Below are positions 4,367 through 63,955 of a DNA stretch of 64,000 nt, piece by piece. A model generated the notes under the pieces. That model saw nothing but the letters and a program-made list of their open reading frames with translations, searched no databases and was not told the DNA's origin. The position numbers and the translations under genes were made by a program. This DNA comes from Alphaproteobacteria bacterium (GTDB lineage Bacteria; Pseudomonadota; Alphaproteobacteria; Rs-D84): assembly GCA_009784815.1 (NCBI GenBank), contig WQXN01000002.1, forward strand, positions 94,667 to 158,666, written 5' to 3'. Numbering within the stretch: position 1 is the stretch's first letter; each line of letters starts with the position of its first letter.

Positions 4367-5509
4367 TTAATTGGAATTCCCTCGTCCAAAAAAATTGAAA
4401 ATTTTCTGCATGACGGTCTTATCGACCTTATCGACAGGCGCCGTGACCGCTTCCTGAACTTCGACTTTCGGCTTTGGCGCATAGCGCATGTTACCAGCGT
4501 ATTTTTTATGAAGAAACACCCGGTTCCCGTCCTTTAACGCATCCAGAATATCGTCATGTTTGGCCAAAGGACTAAGATATGCGCAATCTTGCAAGTTCGA
4601 AAAATTCTTCATATTTTCTGGGATGTCTATAAACTTATCGCCTATTACGCCGGGTAGTTCTTTTTTTGCCATTTCGATTTTTTTATTCAAATATTCGTCT
4701 GCTTCGGCAAGATTTCCGGAAGTGTAAGGGTGCTTAAATTCTATGCGCCAATTTTTTACGATCACGCCATCGTTGTAAATTTGTTTGAACAGTTTATCAA
4801 GATAATCCGTAAGTATTTTATTGTCGGTCAAAATTCGATTTCCAAAACTTAACGCAAAAGTCATGTTCCCGTCGCGCAAATCCCCGCCCGAGTCCAGCAG
4901 AGGATGCGCTTCGTCATCTCCATGCCTTTCGTATACGCTTGTTTTCGAGTACGAGTATGATATTGCTTTCCACTTTGCGATCGTCAGATTTTTATTTTCT
5001 GATGCGCCTCTTGTATCATAAGCGTAAGGTTCCGTATCTCCTGCCCATTGGCAGAATCCTCCATGAGTGCCATGTATGCCGAACTTAATATCATCCGATT
5101 TTATTAACTCTGCACTTGTGGTATCATCGGAACCGCAAATTGATTCCGATGACGGATCAAGAACGTTTTCCGTATTGACCGTCATATCCTCGACTCTCGA
5201 AGCCGCCGCCTTAAAATCTTTCTGCTCATCTTCCTCTAATAAAAACCTATTCATCTCGGACTTTTTAACGCGGATAAATTTGGGGCTGCGTACGAACTCT
5301 ATGCCTGCTGCGGTCAACCTCTTTTCCACATTCTTAATTGCTTCCTCGTATTCATTCTCTATATGAATTCTAAAATAGTCGCTTTCTTTGCCAATGTCCT
5401 CAAATGATAAAACATAAGGCACTCCGATCACGTGCTTTTCAATCTTTGTATTTTCCGGTTTAATCTTGTTTGCGATCAAATCGTTTAATATTCCCAGCGC
5501 GTTTTCCAT
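4367..5509 (-). CDS. hypothetical protein (380 aa)
   Basis: Long ORF with an AAGGA RBS. AT-richer than the core genes. No motif recognised. Confidence 0.7.
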   Translation of the reverse strand: MENALGILNDLIANKIKPENTKIEKHVIGVPYVLSFEDIGKESDYFRIHIENEYEEAIKNVEKRLTAAGIEFVRSPKFIRVKKSEMNRFLLEEDEQKDFKAAASRVEDMTVNTENVLDPSSESICGSDDTTSAELIKSDDIKFGIHGTHGGFCQWAGDTEPYAYDTRGASENKNLTIAKWKAISYSYSKTSVYERHGDDEAHPLLDSGGDLRDGNMTFALSFGNRILTDNKILTDYLDKLFKQIYNDGVIVKNWRIEFKHPYTSGNLAEADEYLNKKIEMAKKELPGVIGDKFIDIPENMKNFSNLQDCAYLSPLAKHDDILDALKDGNRVFLHKKYAGNMRYAPKPKVEVQEAVTAPVDKVDKTVMQKIFNFFGRGNSN

Positions 5510-5542
5510 AACATTTTTCCTTCTATGCTTGCTTTCTCAAAA

Positions 5543-5827
5543 TTATATCACGTTTTGTCCTTTTGATACATAAAAAATGGCCTTGTTTGCCGAATCCGCC
5601 GCAGTAATCCCATCAATCATTTGTGGGGCGGTTTCTATTTTTGAAGTCTTTTTGTTGGTGATTTTTGCTCTGTGCGTTCTGATTTTTTCTTGCGCGCGTT
5701 CGATTGCGCCCCAAGCAATTAATCCGGCCGTCAGCATCGCCAATATCGCCATTGCCGTGTGCCCTGTATCCCATTTCATATTTACGCTGCGATTGCCGCC
5801 TGTTGTATTGTAATCGTTATAGCTCAT
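5543..5827 (-). CDS. small single-pass membrane protein
   Basis: Strong AAAGGAG RBS. One TM segment (AMAILAMLTAGLIAWGAI). Confidence 0.65.
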   Translation of the reverse strand: MSYNDYNTTGGNRSVNMKWDTGHTAMAILAMLTAGLIAWGAIERAQEKIRTHRAKITNKKTSKIETAPQMIDGITAADSANKAIFYVSKGQNVI

Positions 5828-5870
5828 CGTTTCGCTCCTTTATCAAGTTATTTCATTGTTTTACTTTATA

Positions 5871-5900
5871 ATCCTACCCCCCCCCGTTGCTTTTTGTCAA
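5871..5900 (-). promoter_or_regulatory. putative promoter with a G9 tract in the spacer (minus strand)
   Basis: On the minus strand: TTGACA (5900..5895), an 18-nt spacer ending in G9 (5885..5877), then TAGGAT (5876..5871). The leader to ATG 5827 carries the SD. Confidence 0.4.
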
Positions 5901-5914
5901 TCGTTAATTTGTCC

Positions 5915-5942
5915 TTGACAAAACACTGTATTATCATAAAAT
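5915..5942 (+). promoter_or_regulatory. putative sigma70 promoter
   Basis: TTGACA (5915..5920), N16, TAAAAT (5937..5942), about 30 nt before ATG 5974. Confidence 0.45.
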
Positions 5943-5973
5943 AGCGCCTGAACCTAAAACAAGGATTATTGAA

Positions 5974-6330
5974 ATGAACGGTACTATTACCACAATGGAA
6001 ACGGACAAAGCTATGATTGATTCGACTAAAACCAACGTGCATACCTTGCCATGTCACCCTTCTCTTGTAAAGATCATGACTGATGCCGAAGATAATGACC
6101 TGACGGCTCTGCGCGAACTGGTTAGAATTTTATTGAATCACGGAAATAAATTCAACCATTTTATCAGAAGTTTGGTTGGGGCTGGCAATCACGGCGAAGA
6201 CGTTGAAAAAATGCTAAAATCCATAAAGACGGCCTGTCCCGGTTTTACGGAAGGCTGTTGCACTATGGCTTTGACACAAGTTTCATACTGTTGCGAAGTG
6301 GCCAAGATAAAAAGCCAGAACATGATCTAA
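5974..6330 (+). CDS. hypothetical protein (118 aa)
   Basis: ORF with an AAGGA RBS. Cys-rich C-terminus (CPGFTEGCC, YCC). Confidence 0.6.
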   Translation: MNGTITTMETDKAMIDSTKTNVHTLPCHPSLVKIMTDAEDNDLTALRELVRILLNHGNKFNHFIRSLVGAGNHGEDVEKMLKSIKTACPGFTEGCCTMALTQVSYCCEVAKIKSQNMI

Positions 6331-6929
6331 AAATTATAAGCGACGCCCAGGGCATAGAAATTATAAACGCCGTTCCGGTCGCCCGTGTCGCCGTTTGAAA
6401 AGTGCTGCATAACGAACTCGACGTTCCAAGAATCGTTGATTCTGTGCCCTGCGAACATCCTGAAAGGTATAAGAAACTTTGTGTTCAATCGGTCGTTGTA
6501 TTTTCCCTGCACCGCGACGCCAAGTCCGGCTCCGAAATAAGTCTTCTTCCAATCGAACGGTTGGATCGCGAAATCCTGCGACAGCATGAATATCTCGGCG
6601 CTGTAATCTCCCCATTCGCAATCGTAAGGACAATGTCCGAAATAGCTTTCGCGTCCAAAGCCGATTGTCTTTATAAAGCTCATGCTCTGTCTTCCGGGCA
6701 TGCGGAAGAAACTATTCGGCTGGGAATACGTGAACGAAGCAAGGTAATAAGGAACGGGGCGGTTTATGTATTTTGCCAAAATCAGCTCGCCTGAATCGAA
6801 TCCCTGGCCAAGCATGAAGTGAACCTGATTTTGCTTGTCGCCAAAAAAAGGATTAAACCCGGACGCCTCGGCCGCTGCCGCCAAGGGCAGGGTGACTATC
6901 GCAAAAACCGTCATTATAATTTTCATCAT
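6327..6929 (-). CDS. PagL-like lipid A deacylase / acyloxyacyl hydrolase (outer membrane)
   Basis: Signal peptide MMKIIMTVFAIVTLPLAAAAEA. HFSNG His/Ser motif near the C-terminus. Terminal ...GVAYNF. The track start at 6962 is a TTG extension. Confidence 0.65.
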   Translation of the reverse strand: MMKIIMTVFAIVTLPLAAAAEASGFNPFFGDKQNQVHFMLGQGFDSGELILAKYINRPVPYYLASFTYSQPNSFFRMPGRQSMSFIKTIGFGRESYFGHCPYDCEWGDYSAEIFMLSQDFAIQPFDWKKTYFGAGLGVAVQGKYNDRLNTKFLIPFRMFAGHRINDSWNVEFVMQHFSNGDTGDRNGVYNFYALGVAYNF

Positions 6930-10918: not shown

Positions 10919-12127
10919 ATGACAAAACTTACAAAATTATTTGCAATTGCATTCGGTTTTGCGTTTATTTCAGTCGCATCAAACGCCGAGGAATCCGCCC
11001 AGGAACCACGTGTAATAACAATAGAACAACCGGCTGCCGCCGCCCAAAACATCGAAATAAACGTGCGTGTCCGCCGCCGTGGTGGCACCGCCGAAGAAGA
11101 ATGCGCCGATGAAGATGTGGTCGTGGACGGCTCGGAACCCGAACCGGAAGAAAGGTGGAGCTTTGATGACTACAACCAAGCGAAAATAGCCCGTCCGACT
11201 TTCGACCGCAAACTTGCCGATCCGTTCTTTCAACCTACCCAAGGTCGCGTTGCGTTTTCCCTGGCCGCTGATTTCGCGCAAACCAAACATAGATTCACAG
11301 TGCTTGATTCGTTCAATGTTGACAATTCGTTAGTTAATCTCCAAGGCCAAACATTGTCCTGGAAGGGCAGTCAGTTCCTTTACAAAGGCGGTGTATCGTT
11401 CGGTCTGACCGATGCGCTGGAAGTCAAAGCCGCGGCCGCGTTCCACAATTCAAGATTTACCTACTACGGACGCGACGTCAGTCAAACCACCGGCCTTTTG
11501 ACCGGCGGAAATATCACCCATAACGACGACGGTTTCGATTCGTGGGGCGTGGGCCTGGGCTGGCGCGCGTATGAAGACGAAGACGTGATATTCAGACTTA
11601 GCCTTGAATACCGCTCGTGGGAAAAAACCGACCTTATATACGCCAACGCTATGGGAGGACTGAAATTAGGCGCGGCCGGAAGCAAAGTCTATGTATCCGC
11701 CGCGGGATTCTTCTATAATAACGACGGCAATATGTACGGTTTCGGAATAGTGGATGAAACCGGCCACGGCGAATTCGTGATCTACGAAGAAGACAACAAA
11801 AGACCGACCTACATTGAAGGAACTTTGGGTCTTTTTACGGTCTTAACCGACGAAATACACTTGGATTTGAACGCGACCTTCGCGAATCTCAGCTGGCATA
11901 ACGTTGCAAGCATAGGCGGCCAGCTGGCGTTCCAGCCGGTCGAAAGCTTCGCGATCGTAGCCTACGGCCAATACGTCGTCTGGGATTCCGCCAAGGGTGG
12001 CCAAGACCTTCGCTTGTGGTCTACGGCCGGCGCGGCGAACCCGGGAGTCAACGCGCCGCAATCAAGGGTGCATCTTGAACAGCCAAGACAATTTGTCGTG
12101 GGCCTTGGCGCAAAACTATATTTCTAA
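10919..12127 (+). CDS. outer-membrane beta-barrel protein
   Basis: Signal peptide MTKLTKLFAIAFGFAFISVASNA, alternating beta pattern, C-terminal ...GAKLYF. The track start at 10805 runs through tRNA-His. Confidence 0.75.
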   Translation: MTKLTKLFAIAFGFAFISVASNAEESAQEPRVITIEQPAAAAQNIEINVRVRRRGGTAEEECADEDVVVDGSEPEPEERWSFDDYNQAKIARPTFDRKLADPFFQPTQGRVAFSLAADFAQTKHRFTVLDSFNVDNSLVNLQGQTLSWKGSQFLYKGGVSFGLTDALEVKAAAAFHNSRFTYYGRDVSQTTGLLTGGNITHNDDGFDSWGVGLGWRAYEDEDVIFRLSLEYRSWEKTDLIYANAMGGLKLGAAGSKVYVSAAGFFYNNDGNMYGFGIVDETGHGEFVIYEEDNKRPTYIEGTLGLFTVLTDEIHLDLNATFANLSWHNVASIGGQLAFQPVESFAIVAYGQYVVWDSAKGGQDLRLWSTAGAANPGVNAPQSRVHLEQPRQFVVGLGAKLYF

Positions 12128-47693: not shown

Positions 47694-48842
47694 ATGAAAC
47701 TCAGGCTTTTAGCCATTTTTTCACTGGTTGCAACGGTGGTGTCTACAGGTCCGTCATCTGCGCAGCAATTCGGCTGGCAGCAGCCTAATGTGAATACGGT
47801 CCAAGGTCATAACATGGCCTTCGCCCAGCAACAAGCCCTGATGCAGCAGCGCGCTGTGGCCGGTCAGCAGCATCAGTTTATCCCCCAGCAGCCGATGAAC
47901 CCTCAGTTTATAAACCCGGCCATGGTGGCGCAAATGCCCCAAGCCACTCACCCGAACAGGGTCACGGGCACGTTGCCGACGGTCGGAAGGAACAGTGCGG
48001 CCAACGCCGGCAGACAATATATGAACCCTTCGCAGTTTGATCGTTTAGCCGAGAGCGGCCTGTACGTAGGCCTTTCCCTGGCTTATTCCTATAACGTTAT
48101 GGGCGGCATGACCTCTCGTTATAACGACTGGCTTGTGCCTGGATCGGGTAGGGCGGTGGGTTACGACACGTCCGGCGCGGTGCTTCCTCTGCAAATTTCT
48201 ATCGGCGCGGCGCTGAACACGGACGTCCGCGTGGACTTTTCATACACTCGCTACGGCGGAATAAGCTATCCGTCGGTGGTCAAAGCCCCTGACGGCGCGG
48301 GTGGCTTTATGAACCTTCAGGCTTACGACGGCGCGATTACAAGCAACGTCACGATGCTGAACGTATACTATAACATAGATAGTTACATGGGTAACCTTGT
48401 CGGCGGCGCGCTAAGACCATACGTTGGAGTAGGTCTTGGTATATCGGTTAACACGATAGGCGACTATATTATATACGACCCGGAATATTACGTCGAAGAC
48501 GACCTTTTCCCGGGCCAATTACCTGGAACCCTGGTGGGAGTGTCAGATATTTACGCCTATCATTCGGGCGGCACGACGGAACAGCTGGCCTATATGCTTG
48601 AAGGCGGACTGACTACTACGCTTGACAGCGGTATGCGGGTTGATTTTTTCGTAAGATGGATGAATCTGGGCCAAGTCGAAAGCTCGGGCAGCGTGGTTTT
48701 GTCTCAAACGGAATGGCTTGCTGACGGCTTCGGCGGGGAATTTCCTGCGGACTACGAAAGCGTTTTCCATTACACGAACTATCGCGAATCCGGAAGGCTC
48801 TCGACGCTTGACATCGGTATTCGCCTAAGAATCCAATTCTAA
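47694..48842 (+). CDS. outer-membrane beta-barrel protein with a Gln-rich N-terminal region
   Basis: Signal peptide, a Q/P/M-rich stretch of about 90 aa (QQQALMQQRAVAGQQHQFIPQQPMNPQF), C-terminal ...IRLRIQF. Confidence 0.75.
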   Translation: MKLRLLAIFSLVATVVSTGPSSAQQFGWQQPNVNTVQGHNMAFAQQQALMQQRAVAGQQHQFIPQQPMNPQFINPAMVAQMPQATHPNRVTGTLPTVGRNSAANAGRQYMNPSQFDRLAESGLYVGLSLAYSYNVMGGMTSRYNDWLVPGSGRAVGYDTSGAVLPLQISIGAALNTDVRVDFSYTRYGGISYPSVVKAPDGAGGFMNLQAYDGAITSNVTMLNVYYNIDSYMGNLVGGALRPYVGVGLGISVNTIGDYIIYDPEYYVEDDLFPGQLPGTLVGVSDIYAYHSGGTTEQLAYMLEGGLTTTLDSGMRVDFFVRWMNLGQVESSGSVVLSQTEWLADGFGGEFPADYESVFHYTNYRESGRLSTLDIGIRLRIQF

Positions 48843-52288: not shown

Positions 52289-52291
52289 AAA

Positions 52292-53122
52292 TCAAACGGC
52301 CCTCGCCATATATTGCCCCAATATGACGTTCGCCTTTTCCTGCGTGATAATCCTATATCTCACGGCGTCCTTGATCGTTACCGCGATAAAGCGCTCTAAA
52401 TTCGTATACATTCCCATTTCGACTGCGAACTTGACCAGGTTTTCTCCACTGTTAATGAACGACTTCAATCTAAGGTAATACGGCGTCTCGTCTTTTGTGA
52501 TATTGGTGTAAAATTCGGCGTTTCTGATTACGTTGTACACGGTCGAAGTGCTGACGTTCCATTCTCTCGCGATCCTTGTTACCGAAAGCTTTTCAAGCGC
52601 GAACATTGTCAGGATTCCGTTGTTTCGCTGTTTTTTAAGCGCTTCGTTTCCGATCTTTTTGGTTGCGTGGTTTCTGGTTCCTCTTACTCCGTTTACGATT
52701 CGCGAAACCGAAGCTTTGCTGACTCCGCATTCCTTTGCGATATTTCCATAAGACAATCCCTCAAGTCGTAATTTCAAAATCTTGTCGCACGTTTCCTGGG
52801 ATATTGTCGGTGTCCTAAGCGGTACATTGTTGTTGTGCAGCACGCAGAATACAAGTCCGTCCGACACGCCGTAATTGTTTGCGATTTCTTCTGCGCTGAA
52901 TCCGTACTGATACAGTTCGATTATGCCTTTGTCTCGTTCTATGACGGCTTCCTGATCCGGGGACAATACGCCGTGCGCGCTGACTACCCTTGATACCGTC
53001 GCGACCGAAGTGTTCACATACTCGGCTATTTCTCCAAGCAAATAACCTTCCTTTCTCATGCTGACTATTTCTTTGTCCCGATCTGTTCTTTTTCTGCGGT
53101 TAAATTCTGATTTTTTCATCAT
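52292..53122 (-). CDS. DNA-binding protein with four tandem helix-turn-helix modules
   Basis: Four units of about 33 aa. They are RDKEIVSMRKEGYLLGEIAEYVNTSVATVSRVV, RDKGIIELYQYGFSAEEIANNYGVSDGLVFCVL, TCDKILKLRLEGLSYGNIAKECGVSKASVSRIV and NNGILTMFALEKLSVTRIAREWNVSTSTVYNVI. The stop codon is 3 nt from the tRNA-Arg CCA. Confidence 0.7.
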   Translation of the reverse strand: MMKKSEFNRRKRTDRDKEIVSMRKEGYLLGEIAEYVNTSVATVSRVVSAHGVLSPDQEAVIERDKGIIELYQYGFSAEEIANNYGVSDGLVFCVLHNNNVPLRTPTISQETCDKILKLRLEGLSYGNIAKECGVSKASVSRIVNGVRGTRNHATKKIGNEALKKQRNNGILTMFALEKLSVTRIAREWNVSTSTVYNVIRNAEFYTNITKDETPYYLRLKSFINSGENLVKFAVEMGMYTNLERFIAVTIKDAVRYRIITQEKANVILGQYMARAV

Positions 53123-53997
53123 CTTGCGTTTACCTCGTTACTGGTTTTGTATTTATAAAAATTTCTTGCCTTAAAAAGTATCTCTGGCAAAGTATTTCCT
53201 TCCACGCCGATTTTTTCCATGACGCCGATTGTTGCCTTTGCCTCGTTTGTGAACACGAAAAGATTGTGTTCTTTTGCGGCCTCGGTGTATTCTGGCAGAT
53301 CGAATCCGAAGTGCTCCGTTACGGTCTGCAAATTATACAGCATCCGGTTGATTGGCTTTGTGATGATGGCGGAATTTCCGTTCATCCCGGCGTCAAAGAA
53401 TTCGGTTTTGGTAAAATGCGGAGCAAAATTTCCGACGAACTCGTCCGCGCGTTTCATGATCTCGTCGGAAGTCTTTGTCAGCGCGCCGGGGTTGTAATTC
53501 GCCATGTTCTGAATAAATCTTTCTGCGGTGAAGCCGGCTATATGGGGCAGGGTGATTTCGGCTATCTGCTCGGCTCGCTCTTCGGTAAGTTCGCCGCTTG
53601 TCGTGAACATCCTTGCGTTTCCATGCAGTGCCTTTTTGATATATGCCGTAGTTGTCATGTCGGGGATATATCGTTTTAAGTACGCCGCGGCATTTTCGCA
53701 GTTTTCGATAATTTTTTCAGGTTCGCGCCCCAATATCCACAAGTTCATTATGGCTGATCTTTTGCATCGCTCAAAGCTGGCGCTGGGCGCATAGCGTTGC
53801 AGTAACTCGGACAAGCTTGCTATCTTTTTATTAAAGTTAAAGAACTCCATGTTCTTGCCTAGTGCCGCAAGCATGAATATGCCGAAAAGTTTTGGGTTGT
53901 TGGTGATGGCCTTAAGCTTTTTGTCCAACACGTCGGAATATATGCCTATGCTTTTCAGCTGTTCGTTAAGCAAGTAATAAACTTCTATCTTGTCCAT
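53119..53997 (-). CDS. helical tandem-repeat protein (paralog of 54001..54999)
   Basis: Units of 36-42 aa each open with N-x-x-h-h-T: NARMFTTS, NPGALTKT, NSAIITKP, NLFVFTNE. GAGGT RBS. 4-nt overlap with the downstream gene. Confidence 0.7.
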   Translation of the reverse strand: MDKIEVYYLLNEQLKSIGIYSDVLDKKLKAITNNPKLFGIFMLAALGKNMEFFNFNKKIASLSELLQRYAPSASFERCKRSAIMNLWILGREPEKIIENCENAAAYLKRYIPDMTTTAYIKKALHGNARMFTTSGELTEERAEQIAEITLPHIAGFTAERFIQNMANYNPGALTKTSDEIMKRADEFVGNFAPHFTKTEFFDAGMNGNSAIITKPINRMLYNLQTVTEHFGFDLPEYTEAAKEHNLFVFTNEAKATIGVMEKIGVEGNTLPEILFKARNFYKYKTSNEVNAR

Positions 53998-54000
53998 TTT

Positions 54001-54999
54001 TTACCTCGAAGATTTTGGGTTTAGCATGGCCAGCGTGAAAATCGAAGATTTTTTATCTTCCTTTCTAAAATTTTCGATTTTTTCTATGGTGTCTTCGGCC
54101 TCGATCGTGAATAAAAATGTGTTGTGCCTTCTTGCTCCCGTAAGGTACTTTGCATAATCCAAGTCGAATGGATATTTCTGTACGACAGTCTTGATGTTGC
54201 GTATCATGCTCTGGGTTTTCCAGGTAAATATCTTCGAATTGTGAAGAAAGCCCATCTCGGCGAAATCGTATGCGCTAAGATGGGGTCTGAACGCTTCGGT
54301 GAACGCGGCTGCGGCCTCCATTATGATGGCCGGATTTTTCGTCATGACATAAGGATTTGGTCCGGTCCCTATTTTCAAACAATTTACGATTGTCGATGCT
54401 TTGGGGTTGTACTGTCCAAGCCCGTCGACTATCCCGGTCACATTTGATTGAATATATTTTTGCGAGGTCGTAATCATTTCTGGATTTCGGTAATACGCTG
54501 TCCCGGTATATTTTTCTTTCGTTATGTCCGGCAGGTGCGTCGCCGCCCATTTCGAAGATTCTTCCAAATATTCCGAAATATTGTTGGTTGATGCGGTGAA
54601 CATCGCGTTGTTAAAATTCAAAGCTTTTTCAAGAAATTCTCTGTACGTCACGCGGTTCAATATATTTTGTAACGCTGCCGCCGACGCTCTTGTTTTGGTC
54701 ATGATTGTATTCGGGGAATTCGCGCACGCCCAAGCGTTTTGTTTGACGACCTTGTCTGCGTATTCTTTGGGTGTCAAGCTGTGCAGATGCCATTTCAAAG
54801 CTTGAACTGTCTGATGAATTTTTTCTTTAAAATTGAAAAAGTTGGAATTGTATTGTATGTCTTGATACTCGTCTTGGAAAATTTGCAGACATCGTTCTTT
54901 TCTGAATATCTTTTCGACTATTTCGTGCGCTTCGCTCTCATGGAAGAACCCGGTTTCCATAAATTTTGATACCAAAAGACTTCTTAATTCGTAACTCAT
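54001..54999 (-). CDS. helical tandem-repeat protein (paralog of 53119..53997)
   Basis: Units open with NNAMFTAS, NPEMITTS, NPYVMTKN, NSKIFTWK, NTFLFTIE. Shares the FFNF(N/K)(K/E)KI N-terminal block with its paralog. Confidence 0.7.
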   Translation of the reverse strand: MSYELRSLLVSKFMETGFFHESEAHEIVEKIFRKERCLQIFQDEYQDIQYNSNFFNFKEKIHQTVQALKWHLHSLTPKEYADKVVKQNAWACANSPNTIMTKTRASAAALQNILNRVTYREFLEKALNFNNAMFTASTNNISEYLEESSKWAATHLPDITKEKYTGTAYYRNPEMITTSQKYIQSNVTGIVDGLGQYNPKASTIVNCLKIGTGPNPYVMTKNPAIIMEAAAAFTEAFRPHLSAYDFAEMGFLHNSKIFTWKTQSMIRNIKTVVQKYPFDLDYAKYLTGARRHNTFLFTIEAEDTIEKIENFRKEDKKSSIFTLAMLNPKSSR

Positions 55000-55099
55000 T
55001 TTTCACACCAGCGCAACACTGCTTATTCCTCACCGGCGCACAACAGCAAGCCAGTACTTAACATCGCAACATCGTCCATTGTTTTCAACTAACGCACTG

Positions 55100-55127
55100 A
55101 TAATACTCCTCTCGCACGTTTTGTCAA
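55100..55127 (-). promoter_or_regulatory. near-consensus sigma70 promoter of the three-gene operon
   Basis: On the minus strand: TTGACA (55127..55122), N16, TATTAT (55105..55100), about 95 nt upstream of ATG 54999. Confidence 0.55.
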
Positions 55128-55197
55128 GTTATTAATCAAATAAAATTCCGTCAAACCAATGCGATCAAAATGATTTTTATCAAAAATATTAAAATGT

Positions 55198-55238
55198 ACT
55201 AATGGTCTACATTCAAATAGTTATTTGACGTTTCACGT
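55198..55238. repeat. 41-bp perfect direct repeat, copy 1
   Basis: ACTAATGGTCTACATTCAAATAGTTATTTGACGTTTCACGT, identical to 55341..55381. Confidence 0.9.
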
Positions 55239-55340
55239 AAGGGCGGAACAAGAAAATATGACCAAATGTCATGTTTTCCCGCCCGCGCAGAATCCCTAAA
55301 TCTTTGATTTAGTGGATTCGTTGTAAATCTTTACATTTGC

Positions 55341-55381
55341 ACTAATGGTCTACATTCAAATAGTTATTTGACGTTTCACGT
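55341..55381. repeat. 41-bp perfect direct repeat, copy 2
   Basis: Identical 41-mer 143 bp downstream of copy 1. Its last bases run into the palindrome GTGAAGTCTTCAC. Confidence 0.9.
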
Positions 55382-55521
55382 GAAGTCTTCACAATTTTCC
55401 ATTATATCACAAAAATTCACTCCCACAATCGGAACCTTTTCCTTGCTTTTTACTTCTACCTTCTTCCTTTTATCTTTTATTTATGATACAATTGTCCCAA
55501 CGGATAAAATGGAGGCCTAAA

Positions 55522-56548: not shown

Positions 56549-57526
56549 ATGAAAATAAGATTTTCGGAATCTTCTCCAAATTCGTCGAACAGTCCGGCCG
56601 GGTTGATTAGCGATATCGCTTCGTCCAAGCCTCACGGCCGGGAAACCTGGGTTGAATATTACGGCCAAGGCTTTGTCGTCAAAAGGCCGCTGACTGATTT
56701 CGGAGAAGAAAAAAGAATTAAATGGCTTCAAAAACAGCATTTGACACGCAAGCATATCGAAGAAATTCTGTGGTATAAGGGTCTTAACTATTCAGTTTCT
56801 TACGATGTCCCGGAAATGAAGCACGTCAACGACGAGGAGGTTGCAGTGCTTGAAGAAAGGGCCCCGGGCGAGCGTCTAACCAAGCAGTTTTACGATTCGC
56901 TGTCCGCGCGGAGGCAAACAAAAATTCAAAACGGCATAGCCGAATTCCTATCCGACATGGCGCAATTGCGTCCGGTCAAAGAAAGCAGGCAAAAGCTGTC
57001 GGAAAGGTTCAATTTCGCGCAACTCGATAAGTTTTTATCGACCAGAGGAGGGCTCTGGCTTGATCAGGAAGATATAAAATTCACCAAAAAAGTGGCGGAA
57101 CAGGTTAGCAAATTCGAATATGACACCACTTTGGTCTGGGCTCATCGGGATTTGAATCCCGGCAATATCCTATACGATCTTGACACCTGGAAACTTTCGT
57201 TCATCGACTTCGCCGAAGCCAATTACGATTGCGTTTACCATGATATTTTTTATTCTGCGCTTAACAATGAATTGGGTATTTCCGCCAAAATTTTTAATAA
57301 ATTTCTCAAGCTTTACGGTAAAAAACAGCCGAATCTTGCTATAGATCCTGTTCAAACCGCCAAAATTGCCTATATGAACGGCGCCCTCAGAGTACTAAGG
57401 CGCTTAAATTACATAGGAAAACGCGCCAGGCCCAACCCGGCCAATGAAAAAAGCCAAAAAAACCAAAATTTAATGAAAAGTTGGGCAAAGGAAGAGGTGG
57501 AAAAACTAAAAGCGGCTTCTCTTTAA
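56549..57526 (+). CDS. phosphotransferase (APH/choline-kinase-like fold)
   Basis: HRDLNPGNIL (HxDxxxxN) followed by FIDFAEA. Confidence 0.75.
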   Translation: MKIRFSESSPNSSNSPAGLISDIASSKPHGRETWVEYYGQGFVVKRPLTDFGEEKRIKWLQKQHLTRKHIEEILWYKGLNYSVSYDVPEMKHVNDEEVAVLEERAPGERLTKQFYDSLSARRQTKIQNGIAEFLSDMAQLRPVKESRQKLSERFNFAQLDKFLSTRGGLWLDQEDIKFTKKVAEQVSKFEYDTTLVWAHRDLNPGNILYDLDTWKLSFIDFAEANYDCVYHDIFYSALNNELGISAKIFNKFLKLYGKKQPNLAIDPVQTAKIAYMNGALRVLRRLNYIGKRARPNPANEKSQKNQNLMKSWAKEEVEKLKAASL

Positions 57527-57536
57527 TAGAGGTTCT

Positions 57537-58139
57537 TTATTTGGGAATGGCCAAAGTCCTTTCCAGCGCAACCCTAACAATTTTGTCGATTACCTCGGGT
57601 TTTTGCAAAATTGGACATAAATTCTTCTGCGCATTGCTAGGAAATATTGAGCTAAAATCGTCTTCTTGGCAAACATACATCACCCATTGAGTGTGCACAT
57701 CGTCTATTTCAAAGGATAGGGCGCTTAAACCGTACGGAAATCGTTTGTCCGTGTGCCTATCCATGAATTTATGGGCGCATTTCGGGAAATGATCCATAGG
57801 CGGAATAATCCAATCCCCGCCGCCGCAGGATTTAATCGAATAATCGTCGGTTCCATAGATTTTATTAGGCAAAACCGGGCGGTAAAATACATTATTTAGC
57901 CTTCCTAAGCCACTGTTTTCTATGCTTTTTATGGTTTCCCGGTAAATTGTCCCATGCTCTTTATGGGTTATATTGAAATGATGCGACCATGGACGGCCCT
58001 TAAAAAACGTCTTTTTTCTTATATTTTTCCAAATGGCAGCCTGAAATTCATCGAAATATTGCAGCTTTTGTGGGGCAAACGCGAAAATCGCTTGATCAGG
58101 GTGATATTCATAGTTTAAAAGACACTGCATTATAGGCAT
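57537..58139 (-). CDS. hypothetical protein (200 aa)
   Basis: AAGGAG RBS. A hand count of one 60-nt line gives about 33% GC. No motif recognised. Confidence 0.6.
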   Translation of the reverse strand: MPIMQCLLNYEYHPDQAIFAFAPQKLQYFDEFQAAIWKNIRKKTFFKGRPWSHHFNITHKEHGTIYRETIKSIENSGLGRLNNVFYRPVLPNKIYGTDDYSIKSCGGGDWIIPPMDHFPKCAHKFMDRHTDKRFPYGLSALSFEIDDVHTQWVMYVCQEDDFSSIFPSNAQKNLCPILQKPEVIDKIVRVALERTLAIPK

Positions 58140-58194
58140 TTCAAGCTCCTTTTTCGTCGTTGCGCTTACATTTTTAACTCAAATTTGCCAATTT

Positions 58195-58743
58195 TCAAGC
58201 AGTTTTTTCTAAAATTACGAAGCTGGCGCGGCCATATTTACGGCGGGTTAGAGTGATAAATCCCTTAAAATCCTTGGAATTTGTGTTAATTGGTTCTTCT
58301 GACTCGATAATTAAAATTGTGCCAGTTTTCATAAGATTGGCCATTAAAGTTATATCAATTTTACTGCCGTAAGGCGGATCTATAAAGATAATATCGGCTT
58401 TTGGCGCGTATTTGCCGGTAATTTCCGGCATTTTGGCATGCTTGATTATAATAGATGAACTGTTATTCATATCTTTAAGATTTTTGCTGATAATTTTAAT
58501 CGCCTGGGGATCTGAATCAGTGAAAATTACGGTATTTGCAAGCCTGCGGGATATAAATTCTGCTCCAAAAGCCCCGCTTCCGGCATAAACGTCCCAAACA
58601 ACCAAGTCTTTTTGTTTAATTAGAGGTATTAGTATATTGAATAAAGCTATTTTTGCGCGCATGCTTGTCGGGCGTGCACCGGCGGGATAGTCTAATTTCC
58701 TGCCTTTAAATTCTCCCGAAATGATTTGCATTTTAGCATTCAT
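58195..58743 (-). CDS. rsmD: 16S rRNA (guanine966-N2)-methyltransferase
   Basis: ISGEFKGRKL, DVYAGSGAFG and FIDPPY. Confidence 0.85.
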   Translation of the reverse strand: MNAKMQIISGEFKGRKLDYPAGARPTSMRAKIALFNILIPLIKQKDLVVWDVYAGSGAFGAEFISRRLANTVIFTDSDPQAIKIISKNLKDMNNSSSIIIKHAKMPEITGKYAPKADIIFIDPPYGSKIDITLMANLMKTGTILIIESEEPINTNSKDFKGFITLTRRKYGRASFVILEKTA

Positions 58744-60286: not shown

Positions 60287-60349
60287 TTGTATATACATTG
60301 GTATTGACTATCGGTGCCGCGTTTCTAGTATAATTTGCACGAGGTAAAA

Positions 60350-61231
60350 ATGTCCGAAATCAGTCGTAAACAAATAGATGAATTCCTGGTCAAAGAATTT
60401 CCCGGTAAGGTTGTGGACTATGTAGGCGAGGGCTGGTCGAGTTTTGCATTTAGGGTTGGCGGCCGCATAATTCGGGTGCCGCGAAAAACCGAAATTATAA
60501 AAAATTACGAACGCGAGGCCAAAATATGCGAGTTTGTAAGGTCGTTTATCACTCTTCCTATTCCAAAAATAAAGGCGGTTCGTGGAAAAATCCCTTATGC
60601 CGTTCACCGCGAGTTGAAAGGTGAAAAATTCAACAACGCGCGCCTATTGGAAATGACCGTCGGTCAGCGTAATAAAATTGCGTTAGACTCGGCCAGGTTC
60701 ATGGCCGAATTGCATTCCATTCCCTTTGGTGAAATTCAAAAAACCGTGCCGGATCTTGCTTTTTATAAACCTAAAGCGGTAAAGGATCTTAAGAAATGCG
60801 CCGCCGCTTACAAAGGTTTTCTGTCCGCGCCGAAAATAAAGATGTTGCTTGCGGGCTATGTCGCCGCAGTAGCGCGCGCGAACAAGCGCAAGGGTTTCGT
60901 ATACTGTCATGGCGATTTTCACGGCGGAAATTCGCTTGTCGATAAACGAAACAAATTGTGCGGAGTCTTCGATTGGTGCGGCGGAGAAATCAATATCCCG
61001 GAATGCGACATTAAAAGAGTCTTCGAGCTTATGCCCTCGGTCTTCGATTTATTTCTGCCCGAATACAATCGCTTGTCAGGCAGAAAGATAAGGAAAAGCG
61101 ACGTGTCCGACCAGCTTTTGATCCGGCTGGTGGAGTGTGCGCACGACCTGCTTGATCAAACTCATCTTGTTCATATACGCGAAAAGGCTATGAAAGATCT
61201 TGCTGCGCGCGCCGCGCCTTACGTGGCTTAA
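60350..61231 (+). CDS. phosphotransferase (APH-like fold)
   Basis: CHGDFHGGNSLV (HxDxxxxN) followed by VFDWCG. GAGGT RBS before ATG 60350. Confidence 0.75.
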   Translation: MSEISRKQIDEFLVKEFPGKVVDYVGEGWSSFAFRVGGRIIRVPRKTEIIKNYEREAKICEFVRSFITLPIPKIKAVRGKIPYAVHRELKGEKFNNARLLEMTVGQRNKIALDSARFMAELHSIPFGEIQKTVPDLAFYKPKAVKDLKKCAAAYKGFLSAPKIKMLLAGYVAAVARANKRKGFVYCHGDFHGGNSLVDKRNKLCGVFDWCGGEINIPECDIKRVFELMPSVFDLFLPEYNRLSGRKIRKSDVSDQLLIRLVECAHDLLDQTHLVHIREKAMKDLAARAAPYVA

Positions 61232-61316: not shown

Positions 61317-62294
61317 ATGTCGGGCAAAATTAAAGTATATGTGGACGGGCAGGTCGGTACGACCGGGCTTCAGATAATCGGGCGTTTATCAAAGCGCGAC
61401 GATATAGACATCTTATTTATTCCCGAAGATTTGCGTAAAAACGACGACGCGCGCCGCGATTACCTCAACAAATCCGACGTTTCGTTTCTGTGTCTTTCCG
61501 ACGCCAACGCCGTCAAAGCCGCATCTATGGTTGAGAATCCCAACACTGTGATTATCGATGCTTCAACCGCGCACCGCACGAACCCCGATTGGGTTTACGG
61601 TCTTCCGGAAATCGGCGCGCAAAGAAAGGCTATCCGTGGAGCGAAACGTATCGCGAACCCGGGTTGTCATGCTTCCGGATTTATATCCATAGTTTATCCC
61701 TTGGTTTTCGAAGGGGTTATAGCGCGAAATCAAGCTTTGAGTTGTTTCTCGATCACCGGTTATTCCGGCGGCGGGAAAGAGCTTATAGCGGAATACGAAA
61801 ATTCGCCCGATTACGAGGACGAGGCGGACTATCTATATCGCGAACTGGACGGCGCGCAACTGTACGCGCTTGGGTTGGTGCACAAGCATCTTGACGAGAT
61901 GAGGCATATGTGCGGCCTTTTGAAGGCTCCTGTATTTGTGCCGATTTTGAACGATGTTGCTCAGGGCATGACAGTCAGCGTTCCTTTGAGTCTTGAGGGC
62001 GGCGATCACGACGCCGTGCAAATTCACCAATTTTTGGCAGAGTATTATAAAGACGCCGAATTCGTTAAAGTTATGCCGTTTGCCGGCAAGGGTTGCCTGA
62101 ATACCAAGCGCAATACTTTGTCTTCGCAAAGATGCAATGGCACGAACCGAATGGAACTTTTTGTATTTGGCCACAGTAATCACGCGGTGGTTTCGGCCGT
62201 GTTTGATAATCTTGGCGCGGGTGCGGGCGGGCAGGCGATGCATAATATGAATATCGCTTTGGGTATTGAAGAAGCCAAGGGTCTTGTTCGCTAA
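61317..62294 (+). CDS. argC: N-acetyl-gamma-glutamyl-phosphate reductase (short type 2)
   Basis: VDGQVGTTGL, with the catalytic Cys in ANPGCHASG. Confidence 0.9.
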   Translation: MSGKIKVYVDGQVGTTGLQIIGRLSKRDDIDILFIPEDLRKNDDARRDYLNKSDVSFLCLSDANAVKAASMVENPNTVIIDASTAHRTNPDWVYGLPEIGAQRKAIRGAKRIANPGCHASGFISIVYPLVFEGVIARNQALSCFSITGYSGGGKELIAEYENSPDYEDEADYLYRELDGAQLYALGLVHKHLDEMRHMCGLLKAPVFVPILNDVAQGMTVSVPLSLEGGDHDAVQIHQFLAEYYKDAEFVKVMPFAGKGCLNTKRNTLSSQRCNGTNRMELFVFGHSNHAVVSAVFDNLGAGAGGQAMHNMNIALGIEEAKGLVR

Positions 62295-62320
62295 CGCGAG
62301 GTTGTTAGTATCTATTTAAG

Positions 62321-62347
62321 ATTAGGAAGACTTAACGTCTTCCTAAT
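62321..62347 (+). terminator. perfect 11-bp hairpin after argC
   Basis: ATTAGGAAGAC-TTAAC-GTCTTCCTAAT. There is no clear T-run. Confidence 0.5.
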
Positions 62348-62365
62348 GTATTTCCTATATTTTCT

Positions 62366-62476
62366 AAAAAAGGGTGAAATTTGGCCAAAAATTGGCTAAA
62401 TTAAGGATAAAATAAGGTCAAAAAACGCTGAAAATTTAAGCAAAAAATCGCTAAAAATAGCGAAAATTCAACAAAA
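62366..62476. repeat. array of 11 helically phased A-tracts
   Basis: A3-A6 tracts start at 62366, 62377, 62387, 62398, 62409, 62420, 62431, 62442, 62453, 62463 and 62473. The spacings are 11, 10, 11, 11, 11, 11, 11, 11, 10, 10. Confidence 0.85.
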
Positions 62477-62549
62477 TTTAATGGAATCTGCGGCGGGATT
62501 TGAATTTGTGGCTGAAAAATCTTAATTTTTACTAGGTAGAAAGATCGAG

Positions 62550-62577
62550 TTGCTAAATCCTGGGTAAATGGCATAAT
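62550..62577 (+). promoter_or_regulatory. putative sigma70 promoter
   Basis: TTGCTA (62550..62555), N16, CATAAT (62572..62577), immediately upstream of a GGAGG-led mini-ORF. Confidence 0.4.
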
Positions 62578-62869
62578 AAAACGGAGGAGTCTTGATGAAA
62601 AACACGGGAAACCTGCGGGTTTTTATTTATCTTCATGTCGCATAATGTATATTATGTGTAGTTATATATGGTGGAATCGCCTGATCAAAGGGTATTGATA
62701 TCATTTTTATCCGGATTGAGGTCATTTTTATTCGGAACGATTTCAGGATTCGCGCCGGTTTTTGATCAAATATTATTTGAATTATTTTTGTTTGAATTGT
62801 TTTGCCGGGCTCTTTATTTTAAAATAATTTACTCTTGTTTAAATCGCGTTTTTATTTTATATTCACGGA

Positions 62870-63955
62870 ATGCAAAGCTTTGATTTCTCGATCGTATTTA
62901 TTCTAAGCCAGATTTTTATGCTGGTGTCCTTCGTGTTTTTCAGCGCGTCTTATCTTATAAAAAGCAGGCTTGGGCTTTTGGTGGCCAATATCTTTTGCAA
63001 TATTTTCGCAGTGGCAAGCTTTGCCTTATTAGGCGGCTGGATAGCCGCGGCGATGTTTGGAATCGCGATGTTCCGCGACGTTATAAGCGCGTACAGGTAT
63101 GTGCGGCAGACTCCATTGCAGCGTTTAAAAAGCACCAGTACGGACCGATATCTTATGTTTTTCTGGATTTTTGTGTTCACTGTCGCTGCGGCGCTTACCC
63201 AGGTCGGATTTATAAGCCTGTTCGCTTACTTCGCAATTATGGCCTTTAATATAGGAATATTACAGAAAAGCGTTTTAGTATACAGATTGCTTGGAATATT
63301 CGTCGGACTGTTCTGGCTTGTATACAGCGTCAGCGTTTCGAATATTATCGGCGTGATTCTGTATCCTATTATCGCCTTGTCCGCAGCAATTGGCGTAGTA
63401 TCTTATTATAAGGGCAAAAACCGCATCAAAAATTTCCCTAAAACTATAAAGACGCAAAGGTTGGTGCTTCGCGCTTTGCGGAAAAGCGATGCTGGTCCCC
63501 TATTCTCTTTGATCGATAAAAATCGCGGTTTCATCGGCGCGCATTTGGACTGGGTGGACTGTGTGAAGACCTTAAAGGACGAGGAAAAATACGTGGCTGC
63601 CCGCATAGCCGAGTGGAAAATCAAGGCGGGATTCAATTGGATAATTGAAACAGCTAAAGGCGGTTTGATTGGCTTTATAGGCACGGATCCGGTGTCATCC
63701 GATCTTTGGAAAAAGCGCAAATATATAGACTTTGATAATAAGATATTGTCTTTTGCTTACTTTCTTGATCCGAAATACACCGGCAAAGGTTATATGACCG
63801 AAGCTTTGCGCGCTTTGATTGATATTTCGCGCAATTTGGGTTTCAAACGCGTGCAGTTCGGCATAGGCGCGGAAAATATAAAATCCATAGCTGTGGTAAA
63901 ACGTTTAGGAGCCAAGCTTGTGGGCGAAAAACTGGAAATAGATTTGCGGAAATGA
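62870..63955 (+). CDS. fusion of a YgjV-like inner-membrane domain and a GNAT (RimJ/RimL-type) acetyltransferase
   Basis: The N-terminal ~185 aa has about 5-6 TM segments. The C-terminal part has RLVLRALRKSDAGPLF ... KYTGKGYMTEALRALI ... ENIKSIAVVKRLGAKLVGE. Confidence 0.7.
   Translation: MQSFDFSIVFILSQIFMLVSFVFFSASYLIKSRLGLLVANIFCNIFAVASFALLGGWIAAAMFGIAMFRDVISAYRYVRQTPLQRLKSTSTDRYLMFFWIFVFTVAAALTQVGFISLFAYFAIMAFNIGILQKSVLVYRLLGIFVGLFWLVYSVSVSNIIGVILYPIIALSAAIGVVSYYKGKNRIKNFPKTIKTQRLVLRALRKSDAGPLFSLIDKNRGFIGAHLDWVDCVKTLKDEEKYVAARIAEWKIKAGFNWIIETAKGGLIGFIGTDPVSSDLWKKRKYIDFDNKILSFAYFLDPKYTGKGYMTEALRALIDISRNLGFKRVQFGIGAENIKSIAVVKRLGAKLVGEKLEIDLRK

Follow-up and report, generated by a model that had tools for sequence, protein, structure and literature searches.

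A divergent pair of mTERF-like proteins encoded in one operon with a four-module helix-turn-helix protein in a gut alphaproteobacterium

An operon of three genes next to tRNA-Arg(CCG)

The window analysed here is a stretch of 64,000 nucleotides from contig WQXN01000002.1 of an alphaproteobacterium (assembly GCA_009784815.1, positions 94,667 to 158,666 of the forward strand), and our subject is an operon of three minus-strand genes within it, which we call P1, P2 and P3. P1 and P2 are paralogous repeat proteins that profile comparisons and a predicted structure connect to the mTERF family, and P3 consists largely of helix-turn-helix (HTH) modules arranged in series. The genes and the features at either end of the operon are as follows (positions are those of the window).

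54001-54999, minus strand: P1, open reading frame (ORF) of 332 aa, isoelectric point (pI) 8.95
53119-53997, minus strand: P2, ORF of 292 aa, pI 7.7
52292-53122, minus strand: P3, ORF of 276 aa, pI 9.5
55127..55100, minus strand: sigma-70-type promoter, TTGACA-N16-TATTAT
52296..52309, minus strand: weak terminator-like hairpin at the 3' end of P3
52213-52288, plus strand: tRNA-Arg(CCG), called by ARAGORN, convergent with the operon

A reading made beforehand from the sequence alone had proposed three packed genes behind a near-consensus promoter and abutting a tRNA gene, and these elements of the layout were all borne out. The junctions, read in the sequence, consist of a 3-nt gap between P1 and P2 and a 4-nt overlap (ATGA) between P2 and P3, and a Shine-Dalgarno-like GAGG is found upstream of both P2 and P3. 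The promoter agrees with the consensus at 11 of 12 positions, is the best of the 10 sites in the region and would give the transcript a 5' leader of some 95 nt. At the opposite end of the operon, the stop codon of P3 lies 3 nt from the CCA end of tRNA-Arg(CCG). The hairpin found there has a 5-bp stem with 3 GC pairs and matches the terminator consensus only; its T-tract extends into the convergent tRNA gene, and terminator-like sites show no enrichment relative to shuffled sequence.

The third gene of the operon divides into two parts.

52502..53107, minus strand: P3 aa 6-207, four tandem HTH modules of the resolvase HTH_7, HTH_23 or sigma region 4 type (Pfam, self-similarity, module profile)
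52295..52501, minus strand: P3 aa 208-276, C-terminal domain of 69 aa, unrelated to the HTH modules (z 0.5-0.7)

The description of P3 as four tandem resolvase- or sigma-region-4-like modules followed by a C-terminal domain therefore held up on several counts: Pfam scores reach 65.5 (HTH_7), 62.5 (HTH_23) and 59.3 bits (HTH_38), the modules are mutually homologous (pairwise z 3.5-8.8 against shuffles), and a hidden Markov model (HMM) of the module detects four domains. Modules 1, 3 and 4 are basic (pI around 10) and module 2 is acidic (pI 4.1). The C-terminal 69 residues have no Pfam match (best E 0.025) and no sequence match in the PDB; they possibly serve in oligomerisation or partner binding. 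PDB sequence searches with P3 gave nothing significant, and at the sensitivity used, searches of metagenome and viral contigs, phages and plasmids brought up no relatives, so that P3 is a singleton.

Among the best 25 of its 65 Pfam matches, only families of HTH type occur. PADLOC likewise returns generic HTH matches for P3, with weak similarity to the HTH parts of defence-associated regulators (mad1, the CasR/Csa3 HTH and Cbp1-like proteins). Chained small three-helix HTH modules are also known from the bipartite DNA-binding domains of transposases and from Cbp1, in which three HTHs read CRISPR repeats. Identification of P3 as Cbp1 (NCBIfam NF040595) was rejected: the score of 70.8 bits falls short of the cut-off of 140, no CRISPR-like array occurs in the window, and P3, unlike Cbp1, has four modules and a novel tail. 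We also rejected a serine recombinase or resolvase, since P3 has no catalytic domain and its HTH modules fill the N-terminal 207 residues.

Family and fold of P1 and P2

P1 and P2 are 27% identical (BLASTP, E 4e-23), and both carry repeats of a motif N-x-x-h-h-T, in which h is hydrophobic, with a period of 37-43 aa; the paralogy and the repeated units proposed from the sequence alone are thus both confirmed. There are five copies in P1 (aa 130, 172, 215, 254 and 293) and four in P2 (aa 127, 169, 208 and 245), and in each protein one additional, degenerate unit precedes the first motif. P1 begins with a helical N-terminal cap (aa 1 to about 70) that ends in NSNFFNFKEKI and continues with six three-helix mTERF-like units (aa ~75-314). 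P2 has the cap motif NMEFFNFNKKI followed by five units, one fewer than P1. Throughout the motifs the hydrophobic pair is conserved, and the proline of the form N-P-x-h-h-T occurs in 3 of the 9 units that bear the motif. The units of 37-43 aa compare with about 30 aa for the classical mTERF motif, which has a proline at position 8 and leucine-zipper-like X3LX3 heptads.

Direct library searches assign neither protein to a family. Scans of Pfam, NCBIfam, PHROGs and PADLOC with P1 and P2 gave nothing significant, and both proteins fall below the gathering score of the Pfam mTERF family PF02536 (23.1 bits). A word-indexed search of 5.8 billion proteins retrieved only P1 and P2 themselves, annotated as hypothetical in an Alphaproteobacteria metagenome-assembled genome (MAG), and the family alignment added only proteins that were already known. 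As far as such scans go, the initial impression of proteins without a recognisable family was correct; it did not survive exhaustive HMMER searches, hhalign and AlphaFold2 (AF2) modelling followed by Foldseek.

An exhaustive hmmsearch with a profile of P1 and P2 against 1.84 billion cluster representatives yielded 13 distant matches (E 4e-10 to 9e-4), of which a Brevundimonas RTX/cadherin protein is probably spurious. Eight of the relatives, or members of their clusters, exceed the gathering score of PF02536: P0005 (36.6 bits), P0008 (25.7), P0009 (24.5), P0010 (49.2), P0011 (35.9), P0015 (45.8), P0016 (44.2) and P0017 (28.8). With an HMM built from the relatives without P1 and P2, P1 reaches 71.5 bits and P2 51.4 bits, whereas none of 1000 shuffles exceeds 7.1. 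Because this relatives-only profile recovers P1 and P2, the mTERF link is independent of the search that they had seeded. Furthermore, hhalign aligns P1 and P2 with seven Pfam-mTERF-positive bacterial relatives over 230 columns with a probability of 97.3% (E 2.6e-11), and a cap motif FFNF/FFDF-x-x-K-I is common to P1, P2 and the relatives. The two proteins are, by these comparisons, homologous to proteins that pass PF02536.

The predicted structure points in the same direction. With the 13-sequence family alignment, AF2 models P1 with a predicted local distance difference test score (pLDDT) of 89.5 and a predicted template modelling score (pTM) of 0.83, as a helical N-terminal cap followed by six units that each comprise a long helix, a helix of 4-5 residues and another long helix. 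When this model was compared by Foldseek with 350,542 PDB chains, the first 11 matches were all mTERF proteins and the top eight had a probability of 1.00; the best template modelling (TM) scores were 0.52-0.54 over some 325 aligned columns. The matched structures include DNA-bound human MTERF1 (5CRK, 3MVA and others), MTERF3 (3M66), MTERF4 (4FP9) and algal mitoribosomal mTERFs. No TPR, PPR, OPR, HEAT or ARM structure was returned by the PDB search, and a search of a viral structure library gave nothing. The model is a superhelical three-helix solenoid that can be superimposed on solved mTERFs.

From profiles and a predicted structure taken together, we are highly confident that the fold of P1 and P2 is that of mTERF and that the two proteins are part of a bacterial lineage of mTERF-like proteins. 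The sequence-only reading had ventured an organellar-type solenoid of the mTERF, PPR or OPR kind. Its mTERF part is supported by transitive profile homology, hhalign and AF2/Foldseek, and the profile and structure checks that it had called for favour a repeat solenoid whose matches are exclusively mTERF structures. Its PPR and OPR part did not hold: a solenoid of PPR, OPR or TPR type was ruled out, as neither a Pfam profile nor a structural match of this type was found.

The relatives themselves (P0003-P0017) apparently constitute an unnamed bacterial family. They are built from tandem, near-identical repeats of 37 aa (L-T-x-x-x-Y-L-K-A-A-x-K-Q-P-x-L-F-x-Q-S-P-x-T-I-I-x-N-I-E-G-V-V-x-H-F), preceded by an N-terminal FFDF-x-x-K-I motif and followed by a conserved C-terminal domain (...DDN-x-x-LR...LLRALIR-x-G-x-x-K). 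P1 and P2 resemble them (e.g., MCL2737492.1 from an Alphaproteobacteria MAG) in the FFDF/FFNF-K-x-KI cap motif, and the repeat cores correspond, Q-P-x-L-F-x-Q-S-P in the relatives being N-x-x-h-F-T-x-S in P1 and P2. In contrast to the relatives, P1 and P2 lack the C-terminal domain and their units are degenerate rather than near-identical; the relatives, for their part, are single genes without an HTH partner, and some carry N-terminal extensions.

Several members of this family deserve a remark in their own right. P0005 has a long N-terminal extension with a sub-threshold match to Pfam HTH_19 (E 4e-4), and in P0011 (1602 aa) the mTERF-like repeats are fused to FG-GAP repeats. The source annotations of P0003-P0017 are wrong or empty, with 'GrpE' and 'PTS IIA component' among the names given. 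On the contig of an Alphaproteobacteria MAG (L022, JGI 3300010167), a 549-aa gene without a Pfam match (5262-6911) and the 687-aa P0016, which passes PF02536 (8001-10064), are separated by a Sua5 gene. Another contig (L030) has adjacent mTERF-like ORFs at 1-282 and 286-1446, which represent either a tandem pair or a frameshifted gene.

Bacterial proteins of this kind have been described before. In the pTERF family of 'prokaryotic mTERF-like proteins', three-helix units of about 35 aa are repeated 3-11 times in tandem; most members are from gut and rumen MAGs of Bacillota, and the authors present the family as the first set of prokaryotic mTERF homologs (Hu et al., Nucleic Acids Res 2024, PMC11417379). 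One member, pTERF1 (MBQ3414883.1), binds ACTNNNAGTC as double-stranded DNA (dsDNA) with a Kd of 1.87 nM, pTERF2 binds another dsDNA motif, likewise with nM affinity, and pTERF1 also lacks the classical mTERF motif features (PMC11417379). A 2026 survey, on the other hand, states that mTERF genes are absent from bacteria and treats mTERF as a eukaryotic organellar family (PMC12977773). Since pTERF proteins and their dsDNA binding are already published, the kind to which P1 and P2 belong, a bacterial mTERF-like solenoid, is known, and the earlier impression of a kind without a name is not supported.

Compared by description only, pTERF proteins and P1/P2 share a bacterial origin, gut- or rumen-type MAGs, three-helix units, an mTERF-like predicted structure and very low identity to eukaryotic mTERFs. 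The six units of P1 and the five of P2 lie within the pTERF range of 3-11, although they are longer and more degenerate. The tandem repeats of pTERF proteins, most of which belong to Bacillota, are regular; P1 and P2, from an alphaproteobacterium, have degenerate units of 37-43 aa, an FFNF cap and an arrangement as a paralog pair beside a gene for four HTH modules; dsDNA binding was shown for pTERF1 and pTERF2 and is presumed for P1 and P2. With eukaryotic mTERFs (PF02536; MTERF1 3MVA/5CRK, MTERF3 3M66, MTERF4 4FP9) they have in common the superhelical fold of repeated helix motifs and the degeneracy of the repeats. They differ from these in being bacterial, in having no organellar targeting and no direct PF02536 match, in an identity of only 11-14%, in longer units and in fewer canonical prolines. 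P1 and P2 are thus a very divergent variant of the bacterial mTERF-like solenoid, found in a unique operon architecture.

Genomic setting of the operon

The host is a gut alphaproteobacterium (termite-type) related to the Ca. Enterousia / 'Rickettsiales' MAG group. Judged by RNase J, its closest genomes are termite-type gut MAGs labelled Rickettsiales (68-72% identity), followed by Ca. Enterousia and rumen Alphaproteobacteria. The locus L004, from the closest collinear relative (Rickettsiales MAG Coa324_bin6), agrees with the window in the gene order orf382, M16 peptidase, RNase J, tRNA-Arg(CCG), gap, ..., RsmD, TadA and RF1. The trio is missing there and the gap gene begins about 300 bp past the tRNA; in the window P1, P2 and P3 occupy the interval between the tRNA and gap. 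None of 17 related loci encodes any of the three proteins. The trio is therefore polymorphic in presence within a conserved backbone: it is an accessory, lineage-specific set inserted between tRNA-Arg(CCG) and gap and not part of the core genome, as had been suspected. No other locus with the P1-P2-P3 architecture was found in searches of proteins, metagenomes, viruses, phages and plasmids, in keeping with the original impression of an unfamiliar arrangement.

The insertion point appears to be used variably. RNase J is followed by tRNA-Arg in L003, L004 and L005, and the content beyond the tRNA differs. In L003 (12000-14000) and L005 (12200-13650), unrelated small ORFs of 96-181 aa follow tRNA-Arg; one of those in L003 has an N-terminus that, by eye only, resembles a phage tail or tape-measure protein. 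In L004 the 3' end of tRNA-Arg(CCG) and a terminator-like hairpin (10978-11030) are duplicated about 170 bp downstream (11151-11210), just ahead of gap, as if an integrative element, since excised or decayed, had left an attL/attR relic. The differing content of L003 and L005 and the att-like relic of L004 together mark the tRNA-Arg site as a variable insertion point.

Within the window, the signs of a mobile island are missing. No integrase or recombinase is found among the window ORFs, and the 24-nt 3' end of the tRNA occurs only once at up to 3 mismatches, without an att duplicate. Of the marks of an integrase-mediated tRNA island, the trio shows the polymorphism in presence, but it has no integrase, no tRNA-end repeat and no atypical composition. 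Given these absences and a host-like composition, any acquisition would have to be old or to have come from a compositionally similar donor.

Base composition had been cited as a sign of horizontal acquisition, with about 37-38% GC at the operon set against about 60% in a core line. This contrast was overstated, and a windowed scan of GC and codon usage gave no strong atypicality. The genes have a GC content of 41.8% (P1), 45.4% (P2) and 45.6% (P3) against a window mean of 49.7-50.2%. Among the 59 ORFs of the window, z-scores for P1, P2 and P3, respectively, are -1.9, -1.1 and -1.0 for GC, -1.2, -0.1 and -0.4 for GC at third codon positions (GC3), and +0.1, -0.05 and -0.6, which is average, for synonymous-codon likelihood. 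Several nearby housekeeping genes lie below the trio in GC, such as an RsmD-like gene at 38%. The window minimum, also below the trio, is at 57537-58743 and 62001-63000 (38-41%), and the RsmD-like gene has a GC3 z of -3.3. Since stretches of lower GC than the trio exist in the window, GC varies along this genome irrespective of the operon. With composition and codon usage inside the range of the window, and with neither an integrase nor an att duplicate, the argument from atypical GC falls away. Codon usage that resembles that of the host argues instead for a resident, expressed operon and not for fresh foreign DNA.

The bacterial relatives of P1 and P2 are found in other surroundings. In eight contexts with called genes, to which seven further loci from a metagenome scan were added, their neighbours are housekeeping genes (ccm, groESL, ribosomal proteins, tpiA/secG). 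No P3-like neighbour stands beside them, and around 14 relatives no partner gene, multi-HTH neighbour or tRNA adjacency recurs. The conjecture that the trio might travel together and always sit beside a tRNA was not borne out: the relatives are lone genes, and just one of them adjoins a tRNA. Plasmid searches with P1 and with a consensus-like relative gave no match. The family spans phyla, given that a gene neighbouring one relative is over 90% identical to a Blastocatellia protein and that a second relative belongs to an Alphaproteobacteria MAG.

Upstream of the operon lies a further element that may be of regulatory interest.

55195..55394, no strand assigned: intergenic segment with a duplicated element, between the operon promoter and gap (repeat, palindrome and fold statistics)

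A 57-nt element is present in two copies 143 bp apart, of which 41 nt are exact (55198-55238 and 55341-55381), and each 41-nt repeat holds a 16-bp palindrome, TCAAATAGTTATTTGA (TCAAATA-GT-TATTTGA). The repeats are located 70-250 bp upstream of the operon promoter, and the second copy overlaps the -35 region of gap, carrying a -35-like TTGACG. Between the repeats lie two strong hairpins (GGGCGG...CCGCCC) at 55241-55285 and 55291-55320, with an RNA fold z of -6.5; no Rfam family matches the structured segment. The element is absent from the relatives and from the rest of the window and is known from this genome only. We speculate that the 41-nt repeats are candidate operator sites, their membership in the system being hypothetical, and, equally speculatively, that the convergent tRNA-Arg gene is the other candidate target.

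Proposed action, competing explanations and neighbouring genes

We infer that P1 and P2 bind nucleic acid and cooperate with P3, and their target and biological role are likewise matters of inference. The reading that we favour, and regard as somewhat more likely right than wrong, is that of a lineage-specific operon acting inside the bacterium by enzyme-free, sequence-directed binding of nucleic acid, either in regulation or to block the passage of transcription or replication. An extended DNA site would be read by P3, its four HTHs in series covering some 40 bp, and its gene would be translationally coupled to those of P1 and P2. The solenoids of P1 and P2 would wrap duplex DNA in the manner of human MTERF1 and the bacterial pTERF proteins, or, with lower probability, RNA, and the three proteins would jointly act as the regulator or roadblock. 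No catalytic domain was found in P1, P2 or P3, and P1 (pI 8.95) and P3 (pI 9.5) are basic; the products probably work through nucleic-acid binding and not as enzymes.

Several points weigh against this reading or its foundations. P1 and P2 have no direct match to PF02536 even at E<=1, a PDB sequence-profile search reaches MTERF1 only at a marginal E of 0.02, and the confidence of the P1 model depends on the 13-sequence alignment of distant relatives; with P1 and P2 alone as the alignment, the pLDDT drops to 39.6 and the model is unusable. P2 is nearly neutral (pI 7.7), and P1 and P2 have lost several lysines that are conserved at repeat positions 8 and 12 of the relatives, so that their affinity for DNA may be weak or lost. 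Because the relatives stand alone without an HTH partner, it is the operon packing alone that speaks for P1/P2 and P3 as one unit. Finally, each of the three proteins is a singleton, known from a single MAG lineage.

Four other explanations were weighed, none of which, as we see it, has positive evidence beyond analogy. P1 and P2 could be directed at structured RNA (rRNA, tRNA precursors or the leader of their own operon) and serve in RNA maturation or ribosome biogenesis, like MTERF4 and plant or algal mTERFs, with P3 as regulator of the operon only. The structural matches to MTERF4-NSUN4 and to mitoribosome-bound algal mTERFs would suit such a role, as would the adjacency of a tRNA gene and RNase J, and the near-neutral charge of P2 is as compatible with RNA or protein partners as with DNA. 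However, the top structural matches are to DNA-bound MTERF1, and pTERF1 and pTERF2, the only bacterial relatives tested experimentally, bind dsDNA (PMC11417379); the operon came to lie beside tRNA and RNase J through insertion at a hotspot, not through conserved synteny, tRNA adjacency being no trait of the family. We consider this role unlikely. The same holds for the notion that the trio is a decaying regulatory remnant of an integrative mobile element once resident at tRNA-Arg, with no current role in the host. The variable site, with other ORFs in L003 and L005 and the att-like relic in L004, is what such a remnant might leave behind, the P3 modules resemble HTHs of resolvases, transposases and terminases, and a 41-nt exact duplication with hairpins lies beside the operon. 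Yet no integrase, recombinase or other mobile-element gene is present, the tRNA end is not duplicated in the window, and phage, plasmid and viral-contig collections hold no matches; the three ORFs are intact and tightly coupled, with a near-consensus promoter and fully host-like codon usage.

A part in defence seems very unlikely to us. The operon would then be an enzyme-free anti-phage or anti-plasmid module, or an exclusion module, that binds invading DNA, as might be expected of a lineage-specific set in a variable, tRNA-adjoining region, and the weak P3 matches to defence-associated HTHs (mad1, CasR/Csa3, Cbp1-like) would be in line with it. Nevertheless, PADLOC recognises nothing in P1 and P2 and only a generic HTH in P3, whose Cbp1 score stays below its cut-off; no nuclease, ATPase or other effector domain was identified, and neither neighbouring defence genes nor CRISPR-like arrays occur in the window. 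The sequence-only reading had also entertained a set of host-directed effectors, in which P1 and P2, with or without P3, would be delivered into a eukaryotic host and mimic its own mTERFs on organellar or nuclear nucleic acids. The otherwise eukaryotic, organellar distribution of mTERF (PMC12977773), a host-associated gut lineage whose closest relatives are labelled Rickettsiales at NCBI, and the distant relative that fuses mTERF-like repeats to FG-GAP repeats, typical of extracellular proteins, could all be cited for this. Nonetheless, the scans gave no secretion signal or effector family, and no family assignment of P1-P3 suggests secretion (the window was not scanned for secretion-system genes). 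A bacterial-type regulator with four HTHs is co-translated, and the relatives are stand-alone chromosomal genes among housekeeping genes across phyla, including a probably free-living Blastocatellia-like contig. We regard delivery into a host as highly improbable.

Returning to sequence-directed binding within the bacterium, a more specific form of it can be imagined by analogy, and we offer it as a long shot. The operon might be an enzyme-free bacterial counterpart of the mitochondrial MTERF1 system, in which P1 and P2, guided or anchored by P3 at a defined site (the 41-nt palindromic element or the tRNA-Arg gene), would form a polar roadblock for transcription or replication. In a wider sense, P1 and P2 and the bacterial family, in which alphaproteobacterial members pass the Pfam mTERF threshold, would then indicate an mTERF fold native to bacteria. 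If P1 and P2 did bind DNA cooperatively with P3, the operon would represent a novel design for programmable or polar DNA binding among bacteria and a tractable model of mTERF roadblocks. A fold native to bacteria would matter for tracing the origin of the mTERF family of eukaryotic organelles. The value of the locus is limited for now, as a trio seen once, in one MAG lineage, is beyond the reach of comparative genomics. The locus nonetheless adds a very divergent alphaproteobacterial pair to the only published bacterial relatives (pTERF), which are mainly from Bacillota, and through P1 and P2 a wider unnamed bacterial family has surfaced, several members of which pass the Pfam mTERF threshold.

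Other genes of the window stand apart from the operon. A 200-aa ORF without a family (57537-58139, 41% GC) shares the stretch between gap and RsmD with an APH gene (56549-57526), and tblastn with the proteins of both gave no match in the gap-RsmD stretch of L003-L005. The APH gene is one of two APH/choline-kinase-type phosphotransferase genes on the plus strand (56549-57526 and 60335-61231) that lie within 4 kb. On the other side of the tRNA, at 47694-48842 on the plus strand, is a 382-aa ORF without a Pfam family on record; it has counterparts of 58-73% identity in L003-L005, where it is syntenic by the M16 peptidase and enolase.

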